The translations under genes and the position numbers were made by a program. Of a stretch of 33,842 nucleotides of DNA, positions 21,739 to 32,027 are shown piece after piece. The stretch comes from an uncultured Pirellulales bacterium. Its GTDB lineage: Bacteria > Planctomycetota > Phycisphaerae > Sedimentisphaerales > SM23-30. The stretch's first letter is position 1. Each line of letters begins with the position of its first letter. The notes under the pieces were generated by a model that was not told the DNA's origin, ran no database searches, and worked only from the letters and a program-made list of their open reading frames with translations. Where the stretch lies: contig CAZNQT010000001.1 of NCBI GenBank assembly GCA_964574885.1, positions 1-33,842 of the forward strand, written 5' to 3'.

Positions 21739-22284
21739 ATGAGTGAGGGAAAAGAATCCAGGACGAAGTTGTTTTTTCGCCTGTTTATGGCGAATGAAGG
21801 TCGTATCTATACCTATATTCTCATGCTGGTTCCCCATCGTGCCGAAGCCGACGATATAATGCAAGAAACCGCCATGGTGATGTGGAAGCGGTTTGCGGAT
21901 TTTGAAGCGGGGACGAATTTCTTGCGGTGGAGCAAGCAAATCGCGTTTTATAAAATCCTCGACTTCCGTAAAAAACGAAGCAAGGAGCGGATTTACTTCA
22001 ACGAAAATCTATTAGGCGCCCTTGCCGAACATGTCGATACAACGCTGGCAGAGGCTAATCCTCGTCTGATCGCACTTAAGAACTGCCTGGAGAAACTTGA
22101 CAAGTCCGACCGCAAGTTAATCTATCTTCATTACGAACAGGGTGTAACCATTAAAAAGATCGCTCAGGACCTTAAGCGTTCCATCCAAGGCATGTACAAA
22201 GTTATGACCCGGATTCATAATCAGCTTTTACGATGTATTAATCATAAATTAGCGTCTGAGGATTTCCGTGAGTTACTGGGATAA
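21739..22284 (+). CDS. ECF (sigma-70 family, group IV) RNA polymerase sigma factor, Rhodopirellula/Verrucomicrobium-type
   Basis: Region 2: ADDIMQETAMVMWKRFADFEAGTNFLRWSKQIAFYKILDFRKK. Region 4 HTH: LSDRKLIYLHYEQGVTIKKIAQDLKRSIQGMYKVMTRIHNQLL. Length 181 aa. Confidence 0.9.
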   Translation: MSEGKESRTKLFFRLFMANEGRIYTYILMLVPHRAEADDIMQETAMVMWKRFADFEAGTNFLRWSKQIAFYKILDFRKKRSKERIYFNENLLGALAEHVDTTLAEANPRLIALKNCLEKLDKSDRKLIYLHYEQGVTIKKIAQDLKRSIQGMYKVMTRIHNQLLRCINHKLASEDFRELLG

Positions 22285-23875
22285 TCAATCCGAACTAGGC
22301 GAGTTGATACTTGCCAACTTAGACGGGACGGCCAACGCCCAACAGCACGGTCAGTTGGAAAAACTGCTCACCGAGAATGCGGAAGCTCGGCAATATTACG
22401 GAGAATTCTTGTTAATTTACGCCGACTTGTGCCATCGTAATATTTTTGTCCCCGGAAAGGAGATTCAACCGGAAATCGGCGCCGACAATATTTTGCTGGA
22501 GGTGCTCGAGAAGGAAGAGAATACTATTACTTATAAGATCGACGAGAACCGATATCAAAACAAGGTAGAAGAAATCAAACGTGATGCGGAAGATGCCCTG
22601 CGGGAATTTTTAGAGCAAGAGCAGCGGCGGAATGCCGCAGACAATATCCCCCCGTATGTCCATGATCCCTCGTATCTGCCGTATTGGGTGCGCTCAGCGT
22701 TGGGCTTTGGCGGTCGGGTGTTGAAATCCGCCGTGTCCTACATGTGGAAAGCAGCGGCGGCCTGTCTGGTGATTCTACTGGGTTTCGGCGTATATCATCT
22801 CCTGAAATCCGGTCCGGTCTTAACAACCGGTGTTAATACGGTTATCGAGCGCCAAGAGAGGCAAATATCCGCCGGCAACGGGATGCGGCTTGAGCCGGGC
22901 GATGTCATCAAGACCGGTCCCGGCGGCAGAGCCGTTGTCAAATACCAAGGCGAGGATACTACAATAGAACTCAAGGAGAATACTTCCTTTAAGCTGGCTT
23001 CCTCCGAAAACATGGGTAAGCTGTTGGAAATCACCGAGGGGACCATCCACGGCCAGGTTGCCCGACAACCGTCGGACAAACCGATGATACTCGACGCTCC
23101 CCAGGCAACCGTCAAAGTACTGGGGACCGACTTCACTTTCGCGCTCAAGCCGGATTCGTCGTGGATCCGGATGAATTCAGGGACCGTAGAAATGACCCGG
23201 AAAGCCGATTGTCGGAGTATAAAAGTAGATTCGAATCATTATGCGGTAGCCGGCAGTAATTATTCCCTGGCGGCAAAACCGGTTTCGGATTTTGAAGCGG
23301 ACTTTTCCGGATTGATGATGGATACCGATTTCGAGAACGATCGGATTGGGTATTTTCCCACTTTATTTCGTCTATCTCAGATGATGGAAGGCGCATGGCG
23401 CGTGGAGGAAATTCAGGGCAATCGGGTTCTGAAAGGGCGGGGTAAAAATCCGATTTGTGATTTTGGCAACCCCGGTTGGCGGGATTACCGACTCTCGGTA
23501 CGGGTGTATTTCGATACTCCTCCGGAACGACTCGGCGTGATCGTGCGGGATGATCCGATTACCGGAAAGAACTATCAGTTTGAGTTGCGACCGACGGGGG
23601 TAATGCTGATCCGAAGTCTGGATCAAGAACACGACAGCCCGGAGATTATCCGGAGCACAAATATTGAGCGAGTCGAACCGGGACAATGGCACGACTTGGC
23701 GGTGATTTGCCAAGGGGATAAATTGGAGTTTTGGGTGGACGGGCGCCTGGCCATTCAAACTCGACAGTCCTGGGCGCCGCAGGGCGTATGCCGACTCATG
23801 ATAATCAATGGCCAAGCACTGTTCGATGATCTGGCAGTGAGTAAATTAAGCGATTTGGCAAAAACCGATTATTAA
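22268..23875 (+). CDS. FecR-family transmembrane anti-sigma factor with a C-terminal concanavalin-like (DUF1080/LamG-like) sensor domain
   Basis: The GTG start overlaps the sigma stop by 17 nt. Anti-sigma N-terminal helix (LEKLLTENAEARQYYGEFLLIYADL), one TM segment (AAAACLVILLGFGVYHLL), a FecR block (GMRLEPGDVIKTGPGGRAVVKYQGEDTTIELKENTSFKL...VKVLGTDF), then GAWRVEEIQGNRVLKG...WRDYRLSVRV...WHDLAVICQGDKLEFWVDG. Confidence 0.8.
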   Translation: MSYWDNQSELGELILANLDGTANAQQHGQLEKLLTENAEARQYYGEFLLIYADLCHRNIFVPGKEIQPEIGADNILLEVLEKEENTITYKIDENRYQNKVEEIKRDAEDALREFLEQEQRRNAADNIPPYVHDPSYLPYWVRSALGFGGRVLKSAVSYMWKAAAACLVILLGFGVYHLLKSGPVLTTGVNTVIERQERQISAGNGMRLEPGDVIKTGPGGRAVVKYQGEDTTIELKENTSFKLASSENMGKLLEITEGTIHGQVARQPSDKPMILDAPQATVKVLGTDFTFALKPDSSWIRMNSGTVEMTRKADCRSIKVDSNHYAVAGSNYSLAAKPVSDFEADFSGLMMDTDFENDRIGYFPTLFRLSQMMEGAWRVEEIQGNRVLKGRGKNPICDFGNPGWRDYRLSVRVYFDTPPERLGVIVRDDPITGKNYQFELRPTGVMLIRSLDQEHDSPEIIRSTNIERVEPGQWHDLAVICQGDKLEFWVDGRLAIQTRQSWAPQGVCRLMIINGQALFDDLAVSKLSDLAKTDY

Positions 23876-23953
23876 CCTAGAGATGTAAAACCGTGGTTCT
23901 TGGTTTGTAGTTAGGAAATTAACGGAAATTATATATGAAGAAGGAGAATGGTG

Positions 23954-25435
23954 ATGGGTAAAAAATCAGTTCTAATACTTGCTGGTTTATGGGTACTGAT
24001 ATTTGTTGGAGCGACATATGCAGCGCCGCCGATGCTGGTCTGGCAAAACTCGTTGGAGAATGACTCCACCAGCACAGTTGATGGTGGTGAAATTATCAAT
24101 CCTCCTTCCAGTTACGTTTCCGGGGCTATAGGCAACGCTTTCGCTGGCAACGGCAGCGTTTATGCCGAATGGGACAACATCGATGTCGCTACCATCTTTG
24201 ACGACGTCTGGGATAATGATGCGGGATTTACGGTCGATTTGTATTTCCGCGGCGACCACTGGGACACCCATTCCGGTGACTCGGGATTTTGGGCGGTCTT
24301 TGACCGAGGCGACGGAAATGACGGTCACATAATCATATCCGTGCGCGACGGTAACTTGCGTTTTCCGTGGAGGGATTCCTATACCGGCTGGAACAAAACT
24401 GCGTACCTGACCGGTATTACGCTGGCCAACAACATAACCTATCGACTAACCGTACGTCAGTATGAAAATAACTTTGAGGTGTATTTGGACGGTGGCGCCT
24501 ACAGCAACAGTTCCCCTGTCTATGCAGAGAACGACTGGAATGAAACGATTGCTTTCCCGGAATATAATTCCGGCTCTCCCGGCCGCGACATGTATGTGGG
24601 CCAACGTAGCGAAACCTTCGGCGGTATTCTGCAGAGCGGCGAATGGGTGGACCAGGTACGTGTCTATAACGGGTACTATACCCCAGTAGAGCTGGATATT
24701 CCCTACGCCACGAATCCCAATCCCGGCATGGATGAAATAAACGTATCACCGGATGTTGTTCTTCACTGGGATGCCCCGGATCCCAATTTCATAAAAGATT
24801 TACCCGCGCGTTATAACGTATATTTTGGCACCGAACCAAACGACACCCATCCAAATTTCGATTTTCCTCTAGTATCCGAAAACCAGTTGACAACCTTCCA
24901 TGATCCGCTGGGGGAGGCGGTTTTGCTGGAGGAAGCAACGGATTACTATTGGCGGATCGACGTGGTCGATCCTAATTTTGGCGAAGCGAAGATATATGAA
25001 GGCGATCTTTGGCACTTCACGACGATTCCGCCCAAAGCAACGGAACCGTTTCCAGAGGATAATGCGACGGATGTGGACCAAAATGTGGAGTTAAGCTGGA
25101 CCCCTGGTTACGGTGCAGTTTCTCACGATGTCTATATCAGTACCGTACAGTCGGAGGTTGAAAACCGTTCTATTCCTCCGGTTAACGTAGAAGTGGAAAA
25201 GTATAAACCGCTGGATTTGGATTGGGAGACGGAGTATTTCTGGCGGATTGTCGAACGTTTTGACGGCGGGGGAGAAGCCATGGGGGACATCTGGAGCTTT
25301 ACCACGGGTACGCCGAAATGTGCGGAAGTCTTGGGCGGCGACTTTGACAATAATTGCATAGTGGATCTAAGAGACGTTGCCATTATGATCGCTAACTGGC
25401 TGGAGTGCAATCTCACGAACGGCTATTGTCCATAA
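23954..25435 (+). CDS. secreted LamG-like lectin-domain protein, paralogue 1 (LamG-like, two Fn3-like modules, dockerin-like tail)
   Basis: GGAG at 23943-23946 lies 7 nt before the ATG at 23954 (the track start at 23948 abuts the RBS). Signal peptide, then GNAFAGNGSVYAEWDN...DLYFRGDHWDTHSGDSGFW...TYRLTVRQ..NNFEVYLDGGAY...GEWVDQVRVYNGYYTP. Two P.P..DATDV...LSWTPG...YYWRIDV/YFWRIVE...W.FTT modules follow. Confidence 0.8.
   Translation: MGKKSVLILAGLWVLIFVGATYAAPPMLVWQNSLENDSTSTVDGGEIINPPSSYVSGAIGNAFAGNGSVYAEWDNIDVATIFDDVWDNDAGFTVDLYFRGDHWDTHSGDSGFWAVFDRGDGNDGHIIISVRDGNLRFPWRDSYTGWNKTAYLTGITLANNITYRLTVRQYENNFEVYLDGGAYSNSSPVYAENDWNETIAFPEYNSGSPGRDMYVGQRSETFGGILQSGEWVDQVRVYNGYYTPVELDIPYATNPNPGMDEINVSPDVVLHWDAPDPNFIKDLPARYNVYFGTEPNDTHPNFDFPLVSENQLTTFHDPLGEAVLLEEATDYYWRIDVVDPNFGEAKIYEGDLWHFTTIPPKATEPFPEDNATDVDQNVELSWTPGYGAVSHDVYISTVQSEVENRSIPPVNVEVEKYKPLDLDWETEYFWRIVERFDGGGEAMGDIWSFTTGTPKCAEVLGGDFDNNCIVDLRDVAIMIANWLECNLTNGYCP
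25337..25432 (+). other. dockerin-like four-Cys C-terminal tag (copy 4)
   Basis: GDFDNNCIVDLRDVAIMIANWLECNLTNGYCP-stop, with an upstream Cys in TPKCAE. Confidence 0.7.
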
Positions 25436-25524
25436 CGGAAAACAAAGATCACGAAGGTTTTGGGGGGTTATTAAAAAATGTAAAGTGTAATCGAAAAACT
25501 TGAAACTGAGGAAGGAGATTGGTG

Positions 25525-27003
25525 ATGGGCAAAAAACTAGATCTAATACTTATTGGTTTATGGGTACTGATGATTGTCGGAGCGACAAGTGCAGTTCCGC
25601 CGGTGCTGGTATGGCAAAACACTCTGGAGAATGACGCTACGAGTACCGTCGATGGGGGGGAAATTATCAATCCCCCATCCAGTTACGTACCCGGGGCCAG
25701 GGGGAACGCATTCGCCGGCAACGGCAGCGTCTATATCAGTTGGGACAACAGCGAGGTCGCTGCCATCTTCGACGACATCTGGGACAATGATGCCGGTTCT
25801 ACGATCGATTTGTACTTCCGCGGCGACCACTGGGACACCCATTCCGGTGACTCGGGATTCTGGTCGGTGACGGACCGATACGGTGGCAATGACGGTTATT
25901 ACATCCTGTCAGTGCGCGATGGAAAGTTACGTTTTCCGTACAAAGATTCTTATACCAATTATAGCCAAGCACCCCATCTGACCGGTATTACCTTGGCCAA
26001 TAATGTCACCTATCGACTGACCGTACGTCAACATGATAATAACTTTGAGGTGTATTTGGACGGCGGCGCCTACAGGAACAGTTCCCCTGTCTTTACCGAC
26101 AATACCTGGTCAGAAACCATCGCTTTCCCGCAATATAACTCCGGTTCTCCGGGCCGACAGATGGCGGTAGGCGATCGCGCTATCTTCGGTGGTACGCTTC
26201 AGAGCGGCGAGTGGGTGGATCATGTACGTGTTTATAACGGGTACTATACCCCAGTAGAGCTGGATATTCCCTACGCCACGAATCCCGATCCCGGCATTGA
26301 TGAAATAAACGTATCACCGGATGTGGTTCTTGACTGGGATGCCCCGGATCCCAATTTCATAAAAGATCTTCCGGCTCGTTATAATGTGTACTTCGGCACC
26401 GAACCGAACGATACCCATCCCAATTTTGATTTTACTTTGGTATCTGAAAATCAGTTGGATACCTTATATGACCCACTGGGGGAGGCGGGTTTGCTGGAGG
26501 AAGCAACGGATTACTACTGGCGGATCGACGTGGTCGATCCCAATTTTGGCGAAGCAAAAGCATATACGGGTGATCTCTGGCACTTCGCCACGATTCCGCC
26601 CAAAGCGACGGAGCCATATCCCGATGACGATCAAACGAATGTGGCCCAAAATGTAGAGCTCAGTTGGACCCCCGGTTACGGTGCAGTTTCTCACGATGTT
26701 TACCTCAGTACCATACAATCTGAAGTCGAAAACCGTTCTATTCCTCCGATCAACGTAGAAGTAGAAAAGTATAAACCGCCGGATTTGAATTGGGAAACGG
26801 AATATTTTTGGCGGATTGTCGAACGCTTTGATGGCGGGGGAGAAGCCACTGGAGATGTCTGGAGATTTACCACCGGTACGCCGCAATGTGAGTATGAATT
26901 GGATGGCGATGCGAACGGAGATTGTGTAGTCGATCTCAGAGATTTCGCCATTATGGCGGGCAACTGGCTGGTGTGCAATCTGACAAACGGCTATTGCCCA
27001 TAG
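25525..27003 (+). CDS. secreted LamG-like lectin-domain protein, paralogue 2 (same architecture as paralogue 1)
   Basis: Collinear with paralogue 1 over its full length and roughly four-fifths identical by eye. Same RBS-to-ATG geometry (GGAG at 25514-25517, ATG at 25525). Confidence 0.8.
   Translation: MGKKLDLILIGLWVLMIVGATSAVPPVLVWQNTLENDATSTVDGGEIINPPSSYVPGARGNAFAGNGSVYISWDNSEVAAIFDDIWDNDAGSTIDLYFRGDHWDTHSGDSGFWSVTDRYGGNDGYYILSVRDGKLRFPYKDSYTNYSQAPHLTGITLANNVTYRLTVRQHDNNFEVYLDGGAYRNSSPVFTDNTWSETIAFPQYNSGSPGRQMAVGDRAIFGGTLQSGEWVDHVRVYNGYYTPVELDIPYATNPDPGIDEINVSPDVVLDWDAPDPNFIKDLPARYNVYFGTEPNDTHPNFDFTLVSENQLDTLYDPLGEAGLLEEATDYYWRIDVVDPNFGEAKAYTGDLWHFATIPPKATEPYPDDDQTNVAQNVELSWTPGYGAVSHDVYLSTIQSEVENRSIPPINVEVEKYKPPDLNWETEYFWRIVERFDGGGEATGDVWRFTTGTPQCEYELDGDANGDCVVDLRDFAIMAGNWLVCNLTNGYCP
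26905..27000 (+). other. dockerin-like four-Cys C-terminal tag (copy 5)
   Basis: GDANGDCVVDLRDFAIMAGNWLVCNLTNGYCP-stop, with an upstream Cys in TPQCEY. Confidence 0.7.
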
Positions 27004-27101
27004 CGGAAAATGAAGAGAAAAAAGTTTTTTGGCGTGTTGCCAGGATATAAAAAGTAGTTACGTAGAATAGTTTAATAGTAAGGAAAGAAAGGTGGTGGAA
27101 G

Positions 27102-27926
27102 ATGGTAAAAAAGTTTTTTCTAGTGTCTGCGTTTTTGTCGCTGCTTTTGTTTAGTGGGTTTGCAATTGCTGCGCCGGTACCGGTCTGGCAGAACACCCTG
27201 GAAAATGATGCTACGAGTACGGTCGATGGCGGTGAAATTGTAAACCCGCCTTCGAGCTACGTTCCCGGTTCGCAGGGGAATGCATTTGCCGGCAACGACA
27301 GCGTCTATGTCCAATGGGACAACACCGATGTCGCTAACATCTTTGACGGCGTCTGGAACAACGCCCTTGGCTCTACGGTCGATTTGTACTTCCGCGGCGA
27401 CCACTGGGACACCCATTCCGATGATTCGGGACTATGGTCGGTGGTGGACCGACTCGGCGGCGATCCGGATGGTTATTTCATCTTGTCAGTGCGTGACGGA
27501 AGCTTGCGTTTTCCGTATAAAGATTCCTATTCCGGTTTAAGTGAGGCTCCTCACCTGACCGGTATCACACTGGCTAACGATACCACGTATCGCTTGACCG
27601 TACGTCAACTTGGCGCCAACTTTGAGGTGTATCTGGACGGCGGTGCCTACAGCAACGGTTCCCCTGTCTTTTCAGAGAGCGACTGGCCCCAAACTATATC
27701 TTTCCCGGAATATAATGACGGGTCTAATAGCGGCGGCCGTGAGATGAATGTAGGCAACCGCAGCAGTTTTTTCGGCGGCGCCCTTCAGAGCGGAGAATGG
27801 GTGGACAGCATTCGAGTTTTCAATGGGTACTATACGCCGGCGGAGATAGGTGAGATTCCGGAACCCTGTTCGCTGCTGTTGCTTTCGATGGGTGCCCTGC
27901 CGCTACTGCGGCGTAAACGCGGGTAA
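27102..27926 (+). CDS. LamG-like lectin-domain protein, paralogue 3, with a PEP-CTERM sorting tail
   Basis: Signal peptide MVKKFFLVSAFLSLLLFSGFAIA. Same LamG-like domain as paralogues 1 and 2. After YNGYYTPAEI it runs directly into PEP-CTERM. Confidence 0.85.
   Translation: MVKKFFLVSAFLSLLLFSGFAIAAPVPVWQNTLENDATSTVDGGEIVNPPSSYVPGSQGNAFAGNDSVYVQWDNTDVANIFDGVWNNALGSTVDLYFRGDHWDTHSDDSGLWSVVDRLGGDPDGYFILSVRDGSLRFPYKDSYSGLSEAPHLTGITLANDTTYRLTVRQLGANFEVYLDGGAYSNGSPVFSESDWPQTISFPEYNDGSNSGGREMNVGNRSSFFGGALQSGEWVDSIRVFNGYYTPAEIGEIPEPCSLLLLSMGALPLLRRKRG
27855..27923 (+). other. PEP-CTERM sorting signal
   Basis: IPEPCSLLLLSMGALPLLRRKRG-stop: a PEP motif, a hydrophobic span and a basic cluster. Confidence 0.85.
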
Positions 27927-27985
27927 GTAGAAAGTGAAAAGAGACTTAAGTTTCTGAATTGGGGCTACATGACCAAAAAACGCAG

Positions 27986-28026
27986 GAGCCCCGGATTGCG
28001 GTACCGCATGATGGGGCTCTTTTCTC
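27986..28026 (+). terminator. probable Rho-independent terminator after paralogue 3
   Basis: GAGCCCC (27986-27992) pairs with GGGGCTC (28013-28019). The 20-nt loop contains the palindrome GCGGTACCGC. TTTTCTC follows. This is the only convincing hairpin plus T-tract between the sigma gene and paralogue 4. Confidence 0.55.
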
Positions 28027-28112
28027 TGGAAAAGAAGAGTGACGAAACCTGAATGACGAAACAATAAATCCTTAATCCCGGGATTCGATTTTATGACAAG
28101 GAGAAAGAAGAA

Positions 28113-31100
28113 ATGCGCAAGAAGCAGCGAATGGTTGTTTGCCTGGTGGCGCTACTATCCTTTTATAGCTGTTCCCTCGACGGCGTTCAGGGAGCGCCCG
28201 ATCCGATCTGGCACTGCAGCCTGGATAATCTGGATTCGATTACCATTGATGGCGGCGCGATTGTGGATGGATCGGCGAGTTTCGTACCCGGCGCCATCGA
28301 TAACGCCTTTGCCGGCAACGGCAACGTCTATGCGAGTTGGGATAACACGGAAGTTGAGAACATTTTCGGCAGTTGGAACAACAGCCTGGGATCTACAGTA
28401 GATCTATACTTTCACGGCGATCACTGGGATGCCCATTCCGGTGATTCAGGTTTCTGGTCGGTGGTGGATAGGCTTGATGGTAATGACGGGTATTTCATTC
28501 TGTCAGTGCGCGACGGGAGTTTACGTTTTCCATACAAGGATTCTTATACGAATTATAATCAAGCTCCCCATCTGACCGGCATCCCACTGGCCAACAATGT
28601 CACGTATCGCCTGACGGTGCGCCAACTCAATAACAACTTTGAGGTGTATCTCGACGGCGGCGCCTACAGCAACAGTTCTCCTGTATATTCCGATAACACC
28701 TGGAGCCAGACTATTTCATTCCCGGAATATAATGGCGGCAGTGGTAGTAGCGGACGCCATATGAATGTCGGCAATCGCAGCGTATGGTTCGACGGTACGC
28801 TCCAGAGCGGCGAATGGGTGGACCATATTCGGGTCTATAACGGGTATTACACGCCGGCGGAGTTGGGTGATCCGCGCGGTGATGAAGACTGCCCCATAAG
28901 CGATATGGATGATGATTGCGATGTCGATATGTTGGACTTGCAGATTGTTCTCAAGCAGTGGTTGAATGTGGACTTTCCCACGCAAGGACTGGTCGCACAT
29001 TGGAAGTTGGATGGCGATTCGTACGACAGCACCGGTAACCATGACGGTATAATCTATGGCAATCCGATCTGGGATCCGAATGGTTATATCGACGGCGCCC
29101 TGAGCCTGGATGGTGACGGAGACTATATCGATGTGAGCAATCCCTCTTCTTTAAAGCCCAACTTGCCGATTACCCTGGCCGCCTGGATCAAACTTGCAGA
29201 ACTGGGTGATTATCAGGTTATTATCAACCTTGATGAAAAAGACAATGATTACTCCACTCGATTTTATGGTGCTGTTCTGTTTGTGTGGAATACAGGACAG
29301 TTGGTCGCTTCTTTCGGTGACGGACAACCAAACTACAGCAGTCGATATAAGATGGGCACAACGATATTGCAGACGCATACCTGGAATCATGTGGCGGCGG
29401 TAATCCGGGGCGCGAATGACTTCAACCTGTATATTGACGGTCATGATGATGGGGGTGAGTATGGCGGTGATGGTGGGGCGATGGTGTATTCCGATGGAAA
29501 CTCCCAGATCGGCTCTCGTAACGGCACGGCTTTATTTCTGCATGGTGATATCGACGATGCTCGAATTTATGATCGGGCCTTACGCTCCGACGAGGTCGGG
29601 ATTTTGGCGAATGAGGCGGATCTTAACAAAGACGGCAGTGTGAATCTGGACGACTTTACCATTCTGGCTGCGGAATGGCTATTCGGAACGCAAGTGTCCA
29701 TAACCCGGCAACCAGAGAACCTGACTCTATATGAAGGAAATACAGCTACTTTCACTGTGTCTGCGGAAAGCGCTGAACCCATCAGCTATCAATGGCAGAA
29801 GAACACCGTTGACTTGAACGACGGCGGCGACATTTCTGGTGTTACAACCGACACGCTGCAAATTACAAATACGGAAACCTCCGATGAAGGCCAATATCGC
29901 TGCGTGGTAAGTAATATTTTTAATTCGGTCATCTCGGACGAAGCCACTTTGACAGTTACTTTCGGGGTGCCGGTCGGCCGTCAAACCCTTTATGATGCGA
30001 CAACCAATCGCCGTTATATCCTCTATGTACCGATGGATTACAATCCTCCCCAAAAGCTTTATCCGCTGATTATCAGTTCCCACGGCACCAGCCAGAACGG
30101 CGATACCGAGATGGACTCGACCGGCCCCAACAGCGGCTACGACCGAGGCACGCCCACCTGGCCCACCCTGGCCGAGGATAACGACGTAATTGTCGCCTGC
30201 CCCGACATGACCGGAGCGTACGGTGAAAGCGGCTGCGCGGTCAGTTCCACGCATCTAAGCCAACTGGCCTCCGATGATACCGCCATAATGGCCATTATCA
30301 ACGATATTGAAGCCACCTATGATATCGACACAAACAAAATAATGTTGACCGGCTTCTCCGGCGGCGGGAACGTGGTACACTATGTAGGGCTCCGTCATCC
30401 GGATGTATTTAACGCCATCTGTGCCCGACACGGCAACTTCCATGAAGATGAGACGCCCAGTCCACTGCCGAATGGTGCGGTCGATACGGATGTATATATT
30501 TTCACCGGCACTAATGACGGCGTCTGCGGAACAAATGAGGCTATCGCTTGGTACACGGCACAAGGATTTAATTATCTGGACACGGATTACTTCAGCACCT
30601 ATCCAAGCAGCGAACATACCACGGACAGACACCATGCGTTGAACTGGTTTCTGAATTTGAATCTGGAAGTAAGCGCTAACGGCCACTACGTAAGATATCA
30701 TGGCCAGAATCTATTACTAATCGGCGACAGCGGCACCCAATGCGCAACCCAGAACAGCAATTTGGACTACCGCCAGTGGATAGATGACTGTGCGGCTCGT
30801 GGCATCAAAGCAATTCACGTTTGGTCGTTCATGGGTGCCCGCCAGAAACAAGATGGCTCGGTCATCGAAAGCCGTTGGGGATACGTATATCCGTGTGTGA
30901 CGCCCTGGGCAAGGCATACTTCAGGGCCGTTGGCCAACGATCAGCTCTATCAGTGGGATTTGCAATCCTTAGATGAAGGTCCGGATGGAGATCTCACCCA
31001 CTACTGGCCTCGCATGCGCGATATGTGTCAATACGCCAAAAGTAAGGGAGTCCTGGTCGGTTATACGATGTTTACCGGTTGGATCAAAGGCAATAGCAAC

Positions 31101-32027
31101 GCCTGGCCATATCACCCGTTTAATGTCGCCAACGGAGGCCATCTGACGACGTATCCGGATGCCGGTGTGACCATCGAGTCGCCCGGTACGGAGGTCTGGC
31201 AGGAAATCTACTCCGACGCCTGGTCGAACGCCAAGAAGACTCAGTGGATATGGGAACAGTTTTCCCTTAAGGCAATCAACGAACTTGGTTCGATTGGTAA
31301 TGTGTTTTTTGTATTTTTTGATGAGCATTCCTATACGGAAGGCAATATGGGCGATCATTTCCGGGACTTCTTCCGCAGCCGCGGCCAGGTATGGATGGAT
31401 TGGAACGCCCGCCGCAGCACCATCGATTGGGTCATGAGCGGCACGTTCGGCGGAGACGATAAAAACTCCAACGCCGTCTCGGGCTTTAACGGCAGTCCTG
31501 CACGACCGTACTTCTTCCTGGAAGGAGAACCTTATATGGGAGACGGCGTGCGTACCGCAATTTGGACTTTCACAATTGGCGGCGGAAACTACTTCTTCCA
31601 CGCCGACGCTGGTCAAGAAACTGTGACTACGGGCATTATGGTGTACGATCCCAGTTCAACGCCGCCGGGACAGAAGGACAAAGTCCTGGAACGGCTTTCG
31701 TGGCTCGGTCACGCCAGCACGTTTTTCAATCAGTATGTGGACGATCTGGACTCGCTCTCACCTGCCAACGGACTGACGAGCAGTACTCCTGGAGTATATT
31801 GTCTGGCCGATAACGGCAGGGAATATGTGGTTTATTCCAAGATCGGCGCGGCGGTAAACTTTACCGTCAATCTCAGCGCCGCTGCCGGTAAAACTCTAAA
31901 CTGCCGGTTCTATAATCCTCAGAACGGCGTATTCAACTCGACCTTCCAGCGCAGCGGCGGAAACAGCGCCGAATCGTTCTCCAAACCGGATTCCAATGAC
32001 TGGGTGCTTCACATCGTGGAAAATTAA
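28113..32027 (+). CDS. 1304-aa secreted chimera: LamG-like paralogue domain 4, dockerin-like repeat, Laminin_G_3 domain, dockerin-like repeat, Ig I-set domain, alpha/beta-hydrolase esterase (CE1/PHB-depolymerase-like), TIM-barrel-like glycosidase-like domain, beta-sandwich
   Basis: RBS AAGGAGA lies 8 nt upstream. Laminin_G_3: LVAHWKLDGDSYDSTGNHDG...GALSLDGDGDYI...WNHVAAV...LYIDG...GDIDDARIYDRAL. Ig: ITRQPENLTLYEGNTATFTV...YQWQKN...DEGQYRCVVSN. Esterase: YILYVPMDYNP...LIISSHG...IMLTGFSGGG (nucleophile elbow). C-terminus: NLLLIGDSGTQ...GIKAIHVW...WPYHPFNVANGGH...FFDEHSYTEG...GVYCLADNGREYVVYSK. Confidence 0.8.
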   Translation: MRKKQRMVVCLVALLSFYSCSLDGVQGAPDPIWHCSLDNLDSITIDGGAIVDGSASFVPGAIDNAFAGNGNVYASWDNTEVENIFGSWNNSLGSTVDLYFHGDHWDAHSGDSGFWSVVDRLDGNDGYFILSVRDGSLRFPYKDSYTNYNQAPHLTGIPLANNVTYRLTVRQLNNNFEVYLDGGAYSNSSPVYSDNTWSQTISFPEYNGGSGSSGRHMNVGNRSVWFDGTLQSGEWVDHIRVYNGYYTPAELGDPRGDEDCPISDMDDDCDVDMLDLQIVLKQWLNVDFPTQGLVAHWKLDGDSYDSTGNHDGIIYGNPIWDPNGYIDGALSLDGDGDYIDVSNPSSLKPNLPITLAAWIKLAELGDYQVIINLDEKDNDYSTRFYGAVLFVWNTGQLVASFGDGQPNYSSRYKMGTTILQTHTWNHVAAVIRGANDFNLYIDGHDDGGEYGGDGGAMVYSDGNSQIGSRNGTALFLHGDIDDARIYDRALRSDEVGILANEADLNKDGSVNLDDFTILAAEWLFGTQVSITRQPENLTLYEGNTATFTVSAESAEPISYQWQKNTVDLNDGGDISGVTTDTLQITNTETSDEGQYRCVVSNIFNSVISDEATLTVTFGVPVGRQTLYDATTNRRYILYVPMDYNPPQKLYPLIISSHGTSQNGDTEMDSTGPNSGYDRGTPTWPTLAEDNDVIVACPDMTGAYGESGCAVSSTHLSQLASDDTAIMAIINDIEATYDIDTNKIMLTGFSGGGNVVHYVGLRHPDVFNAICARHGNFHEDETPSPLPNGAVDTDVYIFTGTNDGVCGTNEAIAWYTAQGFNYLDTDYFSTYPSSEHTTDRHHALNWFLNLNLEVSANGHYVRYHGQNLLLIGDSGTQCATQNSNLDYRQWIDDCAARGIKAIHVWSFMGARQKQDGSVIESRWGYVYPCVTPWARHTSGPLANDQLYQWDLQSLDEGPDGDLTHYWPRMRDMCQYAKSKGVLVGYTMFTGWIKGNSNAWPYHPFNVANGGHLTTYPDAGVTIESPGTEVWQEIYSDAWSNAKKTQWIWEQFSLKAINELGSIGNVFFVFFDEHSYTEGNMGDHFRDFFRSRGQVWMDWNARRSTIDWVMSGTFGGDDKNSNAVSGFNGSPARPYFFLEGEPYMGDGVRTAIWTFTIGGGNYFFHADAGQETVTTGIMVYDPSSTPPGQKDKVLERLSWLGHASTFFNQYVDDLDSLSPANGLTSSTPGVYCLADNGREYVVYSKIGAAVNFTVNLSAAAGKTLNCRFYNPQNGVFNSTFQRSGGNSAESFSKPDSNDWVLHIVEN
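28902..28970 (+). other. internal dockerin-like repeat 1 of the chimera
   Basis: DMDDDCDVDMLDLQIVLKQWLNV, preceded by EDCPIS. It keeps the first two Cys but lacks the terminal C..CP. Confidence 0.6.
29619..29687 (+). other. internal dockerin-like repeat 2 of the chimera
   Basis: DLNKDGSVNLDDFTILAAEWLFG: a canonical DxNxDGxxxxxD Ca-loop plus helix, with no Cys. Confidence 0.6.

Follow-up and report, generated by a model that had tools for sequence, protein, structure and literature searches.

A sigma/anti-sigma pair with a lectin-fold extracytoplasmic domain and the adjoining secreted-protein cassette in an uncultured planctomycete

The regulator pair and the extracytoplasmic end of its anti-sigma

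The DNA analysed here, referred to as the window, is a stretch of 33,842 nt from an uncultured Pirellulales bacterium (assembly GCA_964574885.1, contig CAZNQT010000001.1), which GTDB places in the Sedimentisphaerales of the Planctomycetota. Between 21739 bp and 32027 bp its plus strand encodes an extracytoplasmic function (ECF) sigma factor, a FecR-type anti-sigma factor and four secreted proteins designated P1 to P4; we read this region as the regulatory and 'front-end' part of a polysaccharide-utilisation cluster and propose that its anti-sigma may sense a glycan directly. The open reading frame (ORF) map bore out the layout and coordinates given in a preliminary description of the region, with the sigma gene at 21739 bp–22284 bp, a GTG start of the anti-sigma gene at 22268 bp and starts of P1 to P4 at 23954 bp, 25525 bp, 27102 bp and 28113 bp.

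The sigma gene (21739 bp–22284 bp, plus strand) encodes 181 amino acids, in which Pfam detected only Sigma70_r2 and r4_2. It scored 150.7 bits against NCBIfam TIGR02989, above the cutoff of 124.55, which upheld its earlier assignment to the Rhodopirellula/Verrucomicrobium family of ECF sigma factors. The ORF of the anti-sigma (22268 bp–23875 bp, plus strand) overlaps that of the sigma by 17 nt, and its GTG start was backed by the orthologue P0002, which begins MNYWDN where the window protein begins MSYWDN. The sigma/anti-sigma overlap was 4 nt in the loci designated L001, L024, L026, L027, L028 and L034.

The anti-sigma is a single-pass protein of 535 amino acids, characterised by its Pfam FecR match, hydropathy, a Gly-Thr motif and an AlphaFold2 (AF2) model. 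Pfam placed FecR (PF04773) at amino acids 212–308 with an E-value of 6e-10 and 39.8 bits against a cutoff of 24, as the earlier call of a FecR-type protein had it. The N-terminal region, the presumed cytoplasmic anti-sigma part, aligned with the N-termini of FecR-family relatives and was followed by an acidic linker and then by a transmembrane segment at amino acids ~160–182, the single hydropathy peak, with the FecR domain on the extracytoplasmic side. E. coli FecR is exported by the Tat pathway and has a twin-arginine motif ahead of its transmembrane helix; no such motif was found ahead of the helix of the window protein, in which the sole Arg-Arg pair (amino acids 120–121) lies 40 residues upstream in the acidic linker. 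The VLGT motif of the anti-sigma (G286-T287) contained the sole Gly-Thr that was invariant across 96 FecR relatives, and the autoproteolytic cut of E. coli FecR and the cut of FoxR both fall at a Gly-Thr. The FecR part of the AF2 model resembled the Parabacteroides anti-sigma BDI_1681 and the C-terminal signalling domain of PupR. In E. coli FecR, autoproteolysis begins a cleavage cascade (PMC12036975).

The AF2 model of the periplasmic part of the anti-sigma (pLDDT 88) consisted of two parts, FecR and a C-terminal domain (C-domain; amino acids ~350–528, 23315 bp–23851 bp, plus strand). We assigned the C-domain, a putative extracytoplasmic sensor, to the DUF1080/CBM66/LamG-like jelly rolls because four independent results agreed. 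Relatives with the same C-domain (P0053, P0054, P0057 and P0058) matched PF06439 at 28.7–34 bits, above its cutoff of 26.8; a profile of nine C-domain sequences matched neurexin LNS (5e-11), the levanase carbohydrate-binding module (CBM) CBM66 (1.7e-7) and also a DUF1080 protein in the PDB; the model had the pLDDT given above; and its C-domain superposed on CBM66 with a TM-score of 0.78–0.80 and a root-mean-square deviation of 2.6–3.4 Å (Foldseek). The concanavalin-like (ConA-like) fold of the DUF1080/LamG type that had been predicted for this end of the protein was thus confirmed, and the fold check that had been proposed, for a lectin or glucanase fold, gave this CBM66-like result. No TonB-dependent receptor or STN-type partner was found in the scanned large ORFs of the window and the C-terminus of the anti-sigma was the ConA-like domain, in agreement with the claim that the protein is not the partner of a TonB transducer.

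When the full anti-sigma was used as query, a word-indexed search for homologues returned the protein itself and one orthologue only, and a search of the same kind with the C-domain alone gave no match. HMMER, run exhaustively against 1.84 billion representatives, yielded 2693 matches via the FecR part (7 at E<1e-30), and a metagenome scan seeded with anti-sigma alignments turned up no relative. The tails carried by the 96 nearest FecR relatives were PA14 (25), GLEYA (8), Laminin_G_3 (5), DUF1080 (3) and DUF1349 (3), with beta-propellers in a few, and no transducer-binding tail was present among them. Such variety is the pattern expected for interchangeable extracytoplasmic glycan sensors.

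Three tandem pairs of a sigma and a FecR anti-sigma were encoded on one contig (L024, 2419 bp–16446 bp), and TIGR02989 was the best match for each sigma. Their sensor tails differed, one being CBM96 and another DUF1080-like with the third cut by the contig end, and a different large secreted protein followed each pair. The CBM96-tailed anti-sigma was followed after 28 nt by a giant DUF5060 protein.

As PF06439 is annotated as a 3-keto-disaccharide hydrolase and the relatives scored above its cutoff, the C-domain could be read as a membrane-tethered enzyme of that kind, with FecR as a scaffold and signalling secondary or absent. We regard this as highly improbable in view of the translational coupling of the protein to an ECF sigma, found in every case, the retained Gly-Thr motif of FecR, the interchange of the tail with non-catalytic CBMs (PA14 and Laminin_G_3 among the 96 relatives, CBM96 in the L024 neighbour) and the best fold match, CBM66, which is a non-catalytic module.

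The downstream genes and their intergenic regions

P1 (23954 bp–25435 bp, plus strand; alternative start 23948 bp) encodes a signal peptide, a ConA-like N-terminal domain (N-domain), two repeats of ~100 amino acids and a Cys-rich dockerin-like tail, as judged from the ORF and domain comparison. P2 (25525 bp–27003 bp, plus strand; alternative start 25519 bp) has the same architecture and is a recent duplicate of P1 (81% identity). P3 (27102 bp–27926 bp, plus strand) encodes a signal peptide, the N-domain and a PEP-CTERM-type tail (IPEP...RRKRG), which was assigned from the ORF and its homologues; the tail, IPEPCSLLLLSMGALPLLRRKRG, is visible in the sequence, and P3 itself had no Pfam match while many homologues carried PF07589. 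No exosortase gene was found in the window. The N-terminal module common to P1–P4 spans ~220 amino acids, and those of P2, P3 and P4 were 81%, 68% and 58% identical to that of P1, respectively. The four genes had been described as paralogues; beyond the shared module this was too simple, as P1 and P2 have extra repeats and the dockerin-like tail, P3 has the PEP-CTERM-type tail and P4 is a multi-enzyme.

A search of 5.8 billion proteins revealed ~50 homologues of the N-domain, most of them proteins of ~270 amino acids and many with PF07589, so that P3 represents the commonest form of the family. The N-domains of P1–P4 had no Pfam match of their own (E<=0.01) and no NCBIfam match, and a weak match to PF13385 was seen in 3 of 50 homologues. 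An AF2 model built from 29 sequences had a pLDDT of 94.4 and a pTM of 0.92, and its best PDB matches were ConA-like jelly rolls, namely tetanus/botulinum Hc-N, sialidase CBM40 and domain 4 of AbnA (Foldseek TMq 0.6–0.66, E ~1e-7). By sequence the N-domain is an undescribed family, and its predicted fold is a ConA-like jelly roll. The earlier statement that all four genes open with a LamG-like domain therefore held for the shared module and its ConA-like fold but not for a match to PF13385 in P1–P4.

Alignment of the sensor domain of the anti-sigma with this N-domain gave no specific homology (hhalign probability 3.7%), and the two as specific homologues were ruled out, only the superfold being in common. 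The idea of a lectin fold that controls lectin folds, put forward in the preliminary description, consequently has no specific meaning.

P4 (28113 bp–32027 bp, plus strand) encodes a multidomain enzyme of 1304 amino acids, assigned with Pfam, NCBIfam and the PDB. In its N-terminal half the N-domain is followed, in order, by a dockerin-like segment, Laminin_G_3 (amino acids 333–495) and an Ig I-set domain (529–615). The C-terminal half contains an esterase resembling PHB depolymerases and CE1 (627–775) and then a module like glycoside hydrolase (GH) families GH5 and GH140 with Collagen_bind_2 (830–1304). This last, glycosidase-like module (C-module; 30600 bp–32024 bp, plus strand) was identified by homology to a gene of the L024/L025 locus, by profile and by PDB comparison. 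Collagen_bind_2 scored 27.7–29.5 bits against a cutoff of 22, and no catalytic-domain match (Apiosidase PF13204 or GH5) was obtained in the window P4. Among the members of the C-module family (profile A9), 10/12 had Collagen_bind_2, 3/12 had GH5 Cellulase and 1/12 had Apiosidase; the PDB apiosidase 8t9w matched the family at 8e-6, in its tail only.

The pectinolytic neighbourhood noted earlier was confirmed by the genes upstream in the window, which encode a PL11 rhamnogalacturonan lyase (477 bits), GH127, DUF6298, DUF4838 and a GH65C-like protein; a SusC/SusD pair was not found among the window ORFs. The DUF6298 protein (10276 bp–13524 bp) and the P4 C-module (30600 bp–32024 bp) both have a terminal Collagen_bind_2. 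By sequence, two different GH140-like (clan GH-A) candidates thus seem to be present in the cluster in addition to PL11 and GH127, which points to rhamnogalacturonan side chains as the substrate. The presence of the rhamnogalacturonan lyase and GH127 in the cluster also suggests a pectic side chain as the ligand.

The gaps between the genes measured 78 nt (anti-sigma to P1), 83–89 nt (P1 to P2), 98 nt (P2 to P3) and 186 nt (P3 to P4). The three gaps from the anti-sigma to P3 contained no significant RNA structure, and such short, unstructured gaps are compatible with a single transcript, although the terminator and the upstream elements described below point to some internal regulation. An intrinsic-terminator-like hairpin with a U-rich tail was located in the P3–P4 gap (27984 bp–28029 bp, plus strand). 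The hairpin itself (27984 bp–28021 bp) had a folding energy of -27.3 kcal/mol (z -3.7), and one was found at the matching position 5′ of the P4-like gene in L004 and L007. Gaps free of hairpins as far as P3 and a terminator after it had been read from the sequence before and were borne out by this analysis.

Upstream of the sigma gene, an alignment with the L001 upstream region contained one long conserved stretch only, the block AACCTCCAAT.TTC..TTTA..ATCAATTA.AATAT (21665 bp–21699 bp, plus strand), which we regard as a candidate promoter or operator for the sigma and anti-sigma genes. On the plus strand, no sigma-70-like site was predicted in this block. A search for an exact bipartite motif (a 5-mer, a spacer of 14–19 nt and a 4-mer) shared by the sigma upstream regions of the window and L001 and by at least two of the P1–P4 upstream regions found none. 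Inspection by eye of the regions upstream of the sigma genes at the distant loci (GC content 42 to 67%) revealed no common motif.

A 17-nt element, TTGGTTTGTAGTTAGGA (23900 bp–23916 bp, plus strand), was found 37 nt 5′ of the start codon of P1, and a second copy, TTGGCGTGTTGCCAGGA (27029 bp–27045 bp, plus strand), 56 nt 5′ of that of P3. The pattern TTGGNNTGTWGYYARGA, which was derived post hoc from these sites, has two sites in the window at no more than one mismatch against 0.05 expected. The element was present at matching positions before the P1 orthologue in L001 (6461 bp–6477 bp) and before the P3 orthologue in L004 (1627 bp–1643 bp), a locus at which the presence of the sigma pair is not established. 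Additionally, a degenerate copy lies 5′ of P2, and a looser form precedes the P3-like gene of L003, a locus without a sigma within 10 kb. It might act as an operator, within a promoter or at the RNA level. The element was rejected as a sigma-54 site, the spacing from GG to GC being 4 nt too short, and a sigma-70 promoter for P1 was rejected as the transcript start would fall inside the ribosome-binding site.

Two further features of the gaps were recorded. Between the P3 terminator and P4 there is a direct repeat of TGACGAAAC (28040 bp–28048 bp and 28054 bp–28062 bp, 14 nt start to start), which may function in P4 transcription as a binding site or a promoter element. An insertion of 55 nt, not present in the window, lies in the anti-sigma–P1 gap of L001 (6385 bp–6455 bp) and contains two GC-rich hairpins (GGGTGGGCACTGCCCACC and GGTGTGCAATGCACACC); it could act as an attenuator or be a small repeat element.

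Gene neighbourhoods of the cassette and of the anti-sigma

Scans of GTDB genomes and JGI metagenomes, together with three contig look-ups, yielded 23 loci with the N-domain. They were found in Phycisphaerae, the named ones being metagenome-assembled genomes (MAGs) of Planctomycetota (Sedimentisphaerales, Anaerohalosphaeraceae and Phycisphaerales). The conserved unit consisted of a P1-like protein, a P3-like PEP-CTERM protein, a hairpin and a P4-like enzyme. Only L001, the closest relative, also had the sigma and anti-sigma; it retained the order sigma/anti-sigma/P1, with 73% identity for the anti-sigma and 75% for P1. Neither phmmer nor a FecR hidden Markov model from 152 sequences (E<=1) detected a sigma or FecR gene in the remaining 22 loci, and at least 8 of these 22 have 6–10 kb of upstream sequence. 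The synteny check that had been proposed for the regulator pair and the paralogue array therefore showed no conservation beyond L001 (1/23 loci). In one Sedimentisphaerales MAG (L005, 9920 bp–19752 bp) the P4-like gene lies beside orthologues of the GH65C-like and DUF4838 genes in another order and without a regulator pair; the locus has evidently been rearranged.

From the regulator side a different partner emerged. Loci of distant anti-sigmas with the same C-domain encoded a sigma, the anti-sigma P0053 (40% identity) and a protein of 696 amino acids (L024/L025); a sigma, P0054 and a protein with DUF5060, Apiosidase and Collagen_bind_2 (L026); a sigma, P0138, CotH and a protein with DUF5060, Apiosidase, Collagen_bind_2 and NPCBM (L028/L029); and P0056, a secreted protein of 243 amino acids and a DUF5060 and Apiosidase protein (L032). 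Every such anti-sigma with upstream sequence overlapped a sigma gene by 4 nt, and the partner sigmas had TIGR02989 as their best match. At every distant locus with enough downstream DNA (L024/L025, L026, L028/L029 and L032), a clan GH-A/apiosidase-like enzyme was encoded 3′ on the same strand. Residues 241–666 of the 696-amino acid protein of L025, the gene directly 3′ of P0053, aligned with amino acids 853–1301 of P4 (41% identity over 451 amino acids, E 6e-104), and full-length homology to the P4 C-module was shown for L024/L025 only. A minus-strand ORF of 278 amino acids after P0053 in L024 was ruled out as a gene, as L025 is 100% identical there and its plus strand encodes the enzyme like the P4 C-module.

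By these sequence comparisons, the conserved partner of the anti-sigma subfamily is a predicted clan GH-A glycosidase of the GH5/GH140-like type with Collagen_bind_2, which in the window corresponds to the last module of P4. As GH5/GH140-like glycosidases recur 3′ of the distant anti-sigmas and one of them is 41% identical to P4, the P4 enzyme, not the lectin-fold array, is the likely core target of the regulator pair. This differs from the earlier view of a lectin-fold sensor that controls lectin-fold surface proteins, in which P4 lay outside the main transcript.

Homology (E 2e-9) was found between the 243-amino acid protein of L032 and the sialidase-CBM-like N-terminal part of the L025 enzyme. 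This secreted domain of ~240 amino acids, with a weak Sialidase-like_CBM match, is a separate gene in L032 (1446 bp–2177 bp) and is fused to the GH140-like enzyme in L025 (2617 bp–3340 bp); in both loci the anti-sigma precedes it and the catalytic module follows it, a position analogous to that of P1–P3 and of the P4 N-domain. A small ConA-like protein or domain 5′ of the enzyme was thus found in two distant loci, as in the window. Its recurrence there bears on a further reading, in which the ConA-like domain of the anti-sigma contacts a protein, either P1–P3 in a FecA-like position or a secretion or envelope intermediate, and the system reports surface-protein load or the state of a receptor instead of free glycan. 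The order sigma/anti-sigma/surface protein mirrors fecI-fecR-fecA, neurexin LNS was the best PDB sequence match of the sensor, and LamG/LNS domains often mediate protein-protein contacts. However, homology of the L025 and L032 'middle' proteins to the window N-domain was not detected, the N-domain family is mostly found without an anti-sigma, and structurally the sensor comes closest to carbohydrate-binding modules, and we consider sensing of a protein partner rather improbable.

A candidate glycan-sensing switch and its relation to known systems

The reading we prefer, and to which we give an even chance, is that the pair forms a TonB-independent ECF switch in which the DUF1080/CBM66-like FecR anti-sigma senses a glycan directly and controls the downstream cassette, with the P4 glycosidase as its conserved target. 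Starting from the observed gene layout, the domain identities and folds, the coupling of sigma to anti-sigma and the linkage of the anti-sigma subfamily to GH140-like enzymes, we infer ligand binding, proteolytic activation and the promoters used by the sigma as follows. The ECF sigma would be kept at the membrane by the anti-sigma, whose extracytoplasmic end is a DUF1080/CBM66-like lectin-fold domain in place of a module that contacts a TonB transducer. Direct binding of a glycan or an oligosaccharide product by this domain would set off the cascade of proteolysis usual for FecR proteins, whose Gly-Thr self-cleavage motif the window protein retains, and the sigma would be freed. The released sigma would then increase the transcription of the operon in which it is encoded and of the same-strand cassette downstream, in which P1 and P2 are secreted with their dockerin-like tails and P3 would be anchored through PEP-CTERM. 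P4, whose esterase and GH5/GH140-like modules would be the evolutionarily conserved target, might be transcribed either past the terminator or from a promoter of its own.

Several results weigh against this switch. The cassette, including P4-like genes, occurred without a sigma or FecR gene in 22/23 loci, and because of these loci the link between the pair and the cassette is not obligatory; it may be recent in the lineage of the window. A strong terminator conserved in position parts P3 from P4, P1 and P3 have their own conserved 17-nt element, which in looser form is also present in L003, where no sigma lies within 10 kb, and no ECF-type bipartite motif was common to the upstream regions of the sigma and of P1–P4. 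The distant anti-sigma contexts are a small sample of four independent loci. As for the sensor itself, the profile check that placed the regulators above the cutoffs for TIGR02989 and FecR left the C-domain of the window protein, with matches at amino acids 404–500, below those for 3keto-disac_hyd/DUF1080 (23.8 against 26.8 bits) and Laminin_G_3 (22.4 against 27.6 bits). PF06439 moreover bears the name of a hydrolase, so that glycan binding by the modelled domain is putative.

Much of this would also fit a mere adjacency, in which an ECF pair inserted or rearranged beside a pre-existing, independently regulated cassette regulates only itself or distant genes, and P1, P3 and P4 have promoters or operators of their own (the 17-nt element and the post-terminator region before P4). 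The absence of the pair from 22/23 cassette loci, the P4-like gene of L005 beside GH65C-like and DUF4838 orthologues but no sigma, the conserved 17-nt element 5′ of P1 and P3, the conserved terminator 5′ of P4 and the 55-nt insertion with two hairpins between the anti-sigma and P1 of L001 all favour it. Chance is nevertheless hard to invoke for the recurrence of P4 C-module homologues and apiosidase-like enzymes after distant anti-sigmas, and no terminator interrupts the short same-strand gaps that lead from the anti-sigma to P3. We hold adjacency without control to be unlikely, though it deserves serious consideration.

The direct-sensing switch has partial counterparts among known systems. 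With FecI/FecR/FecA of E. coli, and with PupR and FoxR of Pseudomonas, it shares an ECF sigma coupled to a single-pass FecR anti-sigma with a Gly-Thr motif, and the FecR part of the window protein superposes on the C-terminal signalling domain of PupR. In contrast, the window pair has no nearby gene for a TonB-dependent transducer, a ConA-like domain takes the place of the transducer-contacting module, the twin-arginine motif is absent ahead of the transmembrane helix, the sigma is a TIGR02989 member and not FecI-like, and the neighbouring genes are related to glycans, not iron. The ECF/FecR-like pairs of polysaccharide-utilisation loci in Bacteroidetes likewise lie within glycan-degradation loci, and BDI_1681 matched the FecR part of the window protein; the window, however, has no SusC/SusD, its anti-sigma has no DUF4974/STN-binding C-terminus, and sensing, which there proceeds via an outer-membrane transporter, would here be direct. 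The best fold and profile matches of the sensor were CBM66 of the B. subtilis levanase SacC and DUF1080/PF06439 proteins (BT3469 and BDI_1869), domains that either accompany or constitute secreted glycoside hydrolases, whereas in the window the domain ends a signalling protein.

A characterised functional analogue is SigI/RsgI of Clostridium (Acetivibrio) thermocellum. Extracellular CBMs on membrane anti-sigmas (RsgI) sense polysaccharide there and release a dedicated sigma for glycan-degrading enzymes (PMC11557425). The likeness is that of a CBM-type extracellular sensor on an anti-sigma, which in the window is a matter of modelled fold only (CBM66/DUF1080-like). That organism has multiple paralogous pairs with different sensor modules, to which the three tandem pairs of L024 may be compared. 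The protein families are unrelated, with sigma-I in one and an ECF sigma of TIGR02989 in the other; the Pfam scan of the window anti-sigma found no RsgI domain, only FecR and ConA-like/LamG models; and RsgI systems have a Gram-positive envelope and another activation chemistry. As defining features of both systems were looked for in the window pair and not found, it is neither a FecIRA nor a SigI/RsgI system, and by analogy it would in outline work like both. A literature search on anti-sigma and ECF factors, LamG/DUF1080/PA14, Planctomycetes, Verrucomicrobia and TIGR02989 found no paper on FecR anti-sigmas with such tails, and pairs of this kind are not discussed in the Kiritimatiella glycovorans paper either. 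The remark in the preliminary description that no characterised example was known thus held for the FecR version but not for the function, for which CBM-bearing RsgI is an analogue.

The architecture looks like an unstudied and apparently common mode of polysaccharide sensing in planctomycetes. In anoxic sediments, planctomycetes, including relatives in the Phycisphaerae and Sedimentisphaerales, play a major part in the breakdown of complex polysaccharides; to our knowledge they lack the SusC/D logic of Bacteroidetes, and glycan sensing in them is essentially unknown. We suggest, tentatively and with more doubt than confidence, that pairs of a TIGR02989 sigma and a FecR anti-sigma make up a large class, as yet uncharacterised, of sensors in Planctomycetota and relatives that detect glycans directly and independently of TonB. 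The interchangeable module would set specificity and co-vary with the downstream carbohydrate-active enzyme (CAZyme), the DUF1080-like sensor would be tuned to a substrate or product of the GH140-like (apiosidase-type) enzyme, and the small ConA-like surface proteins would help to capture or present the glycan. If these are direct glycan sensors, each sensor module would indicate the inducer of the adjoining enzymes. Substrates could then be predicted for many 'hypothetical' CAZyme clusters, and orthogonal ligand-gated sigma/anti-sigma switches would become available as a set. The combination of a DUF1080-like sensor and a GH140-like enzyme, which recurs, is a concrete case in which this can be tested.

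Some minor observations concern related regulators. P0055 and P0063, paralogues closer in the FecR part, head operons that encode a pilin-like N_methyl protein and a Laminin_G_3 protein. The arrangement in L033 (1 bp–4812 bp) and L034 (6466 bp–11835 bp) was a sigma, an anti-sigma, a 28-nt gap, an N_methyl protein (pilin-like, DUF1559-type) and a LamG/PKD protein, and a similar pair of pilin-like and PKD genes lies in the window between 3699 bp and 6513 bp without an adjoining sigma. The gaps between anti-sigma and enzyme in L025 (2547 bp–2616 bp) and L026 (2498 bp–2575 bp), which are unrelated high-GC contigs, both contain GGGCTCAGGGCGAGCC...CTTCGAC, a sequence that resembles a conserved leader or a dispersed repeat.

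The Cys-rich dockerin-like tail of P1 and P2 (GD.N.DC.VDL.DF......NWL.CN....CP) ends five secreted proteins of the window. On the plus strand it was located in the PL11 lyase (3380 bp–3476 bp), the PKD protein (6420 bp–6513 bp), P1 (25340 bp–25435 bp) and P2 (26910 bp–27003 bp), and on the minus strand at 32367 bp–32460 bp, in an ORF at 32367 bp–33764 bp. It matched no Pfam or NCBIfam model, and the Pfam matches of the window ORFs included no cohesin-like partner; the tail may be a lineage-specific anchoring or sorting module.

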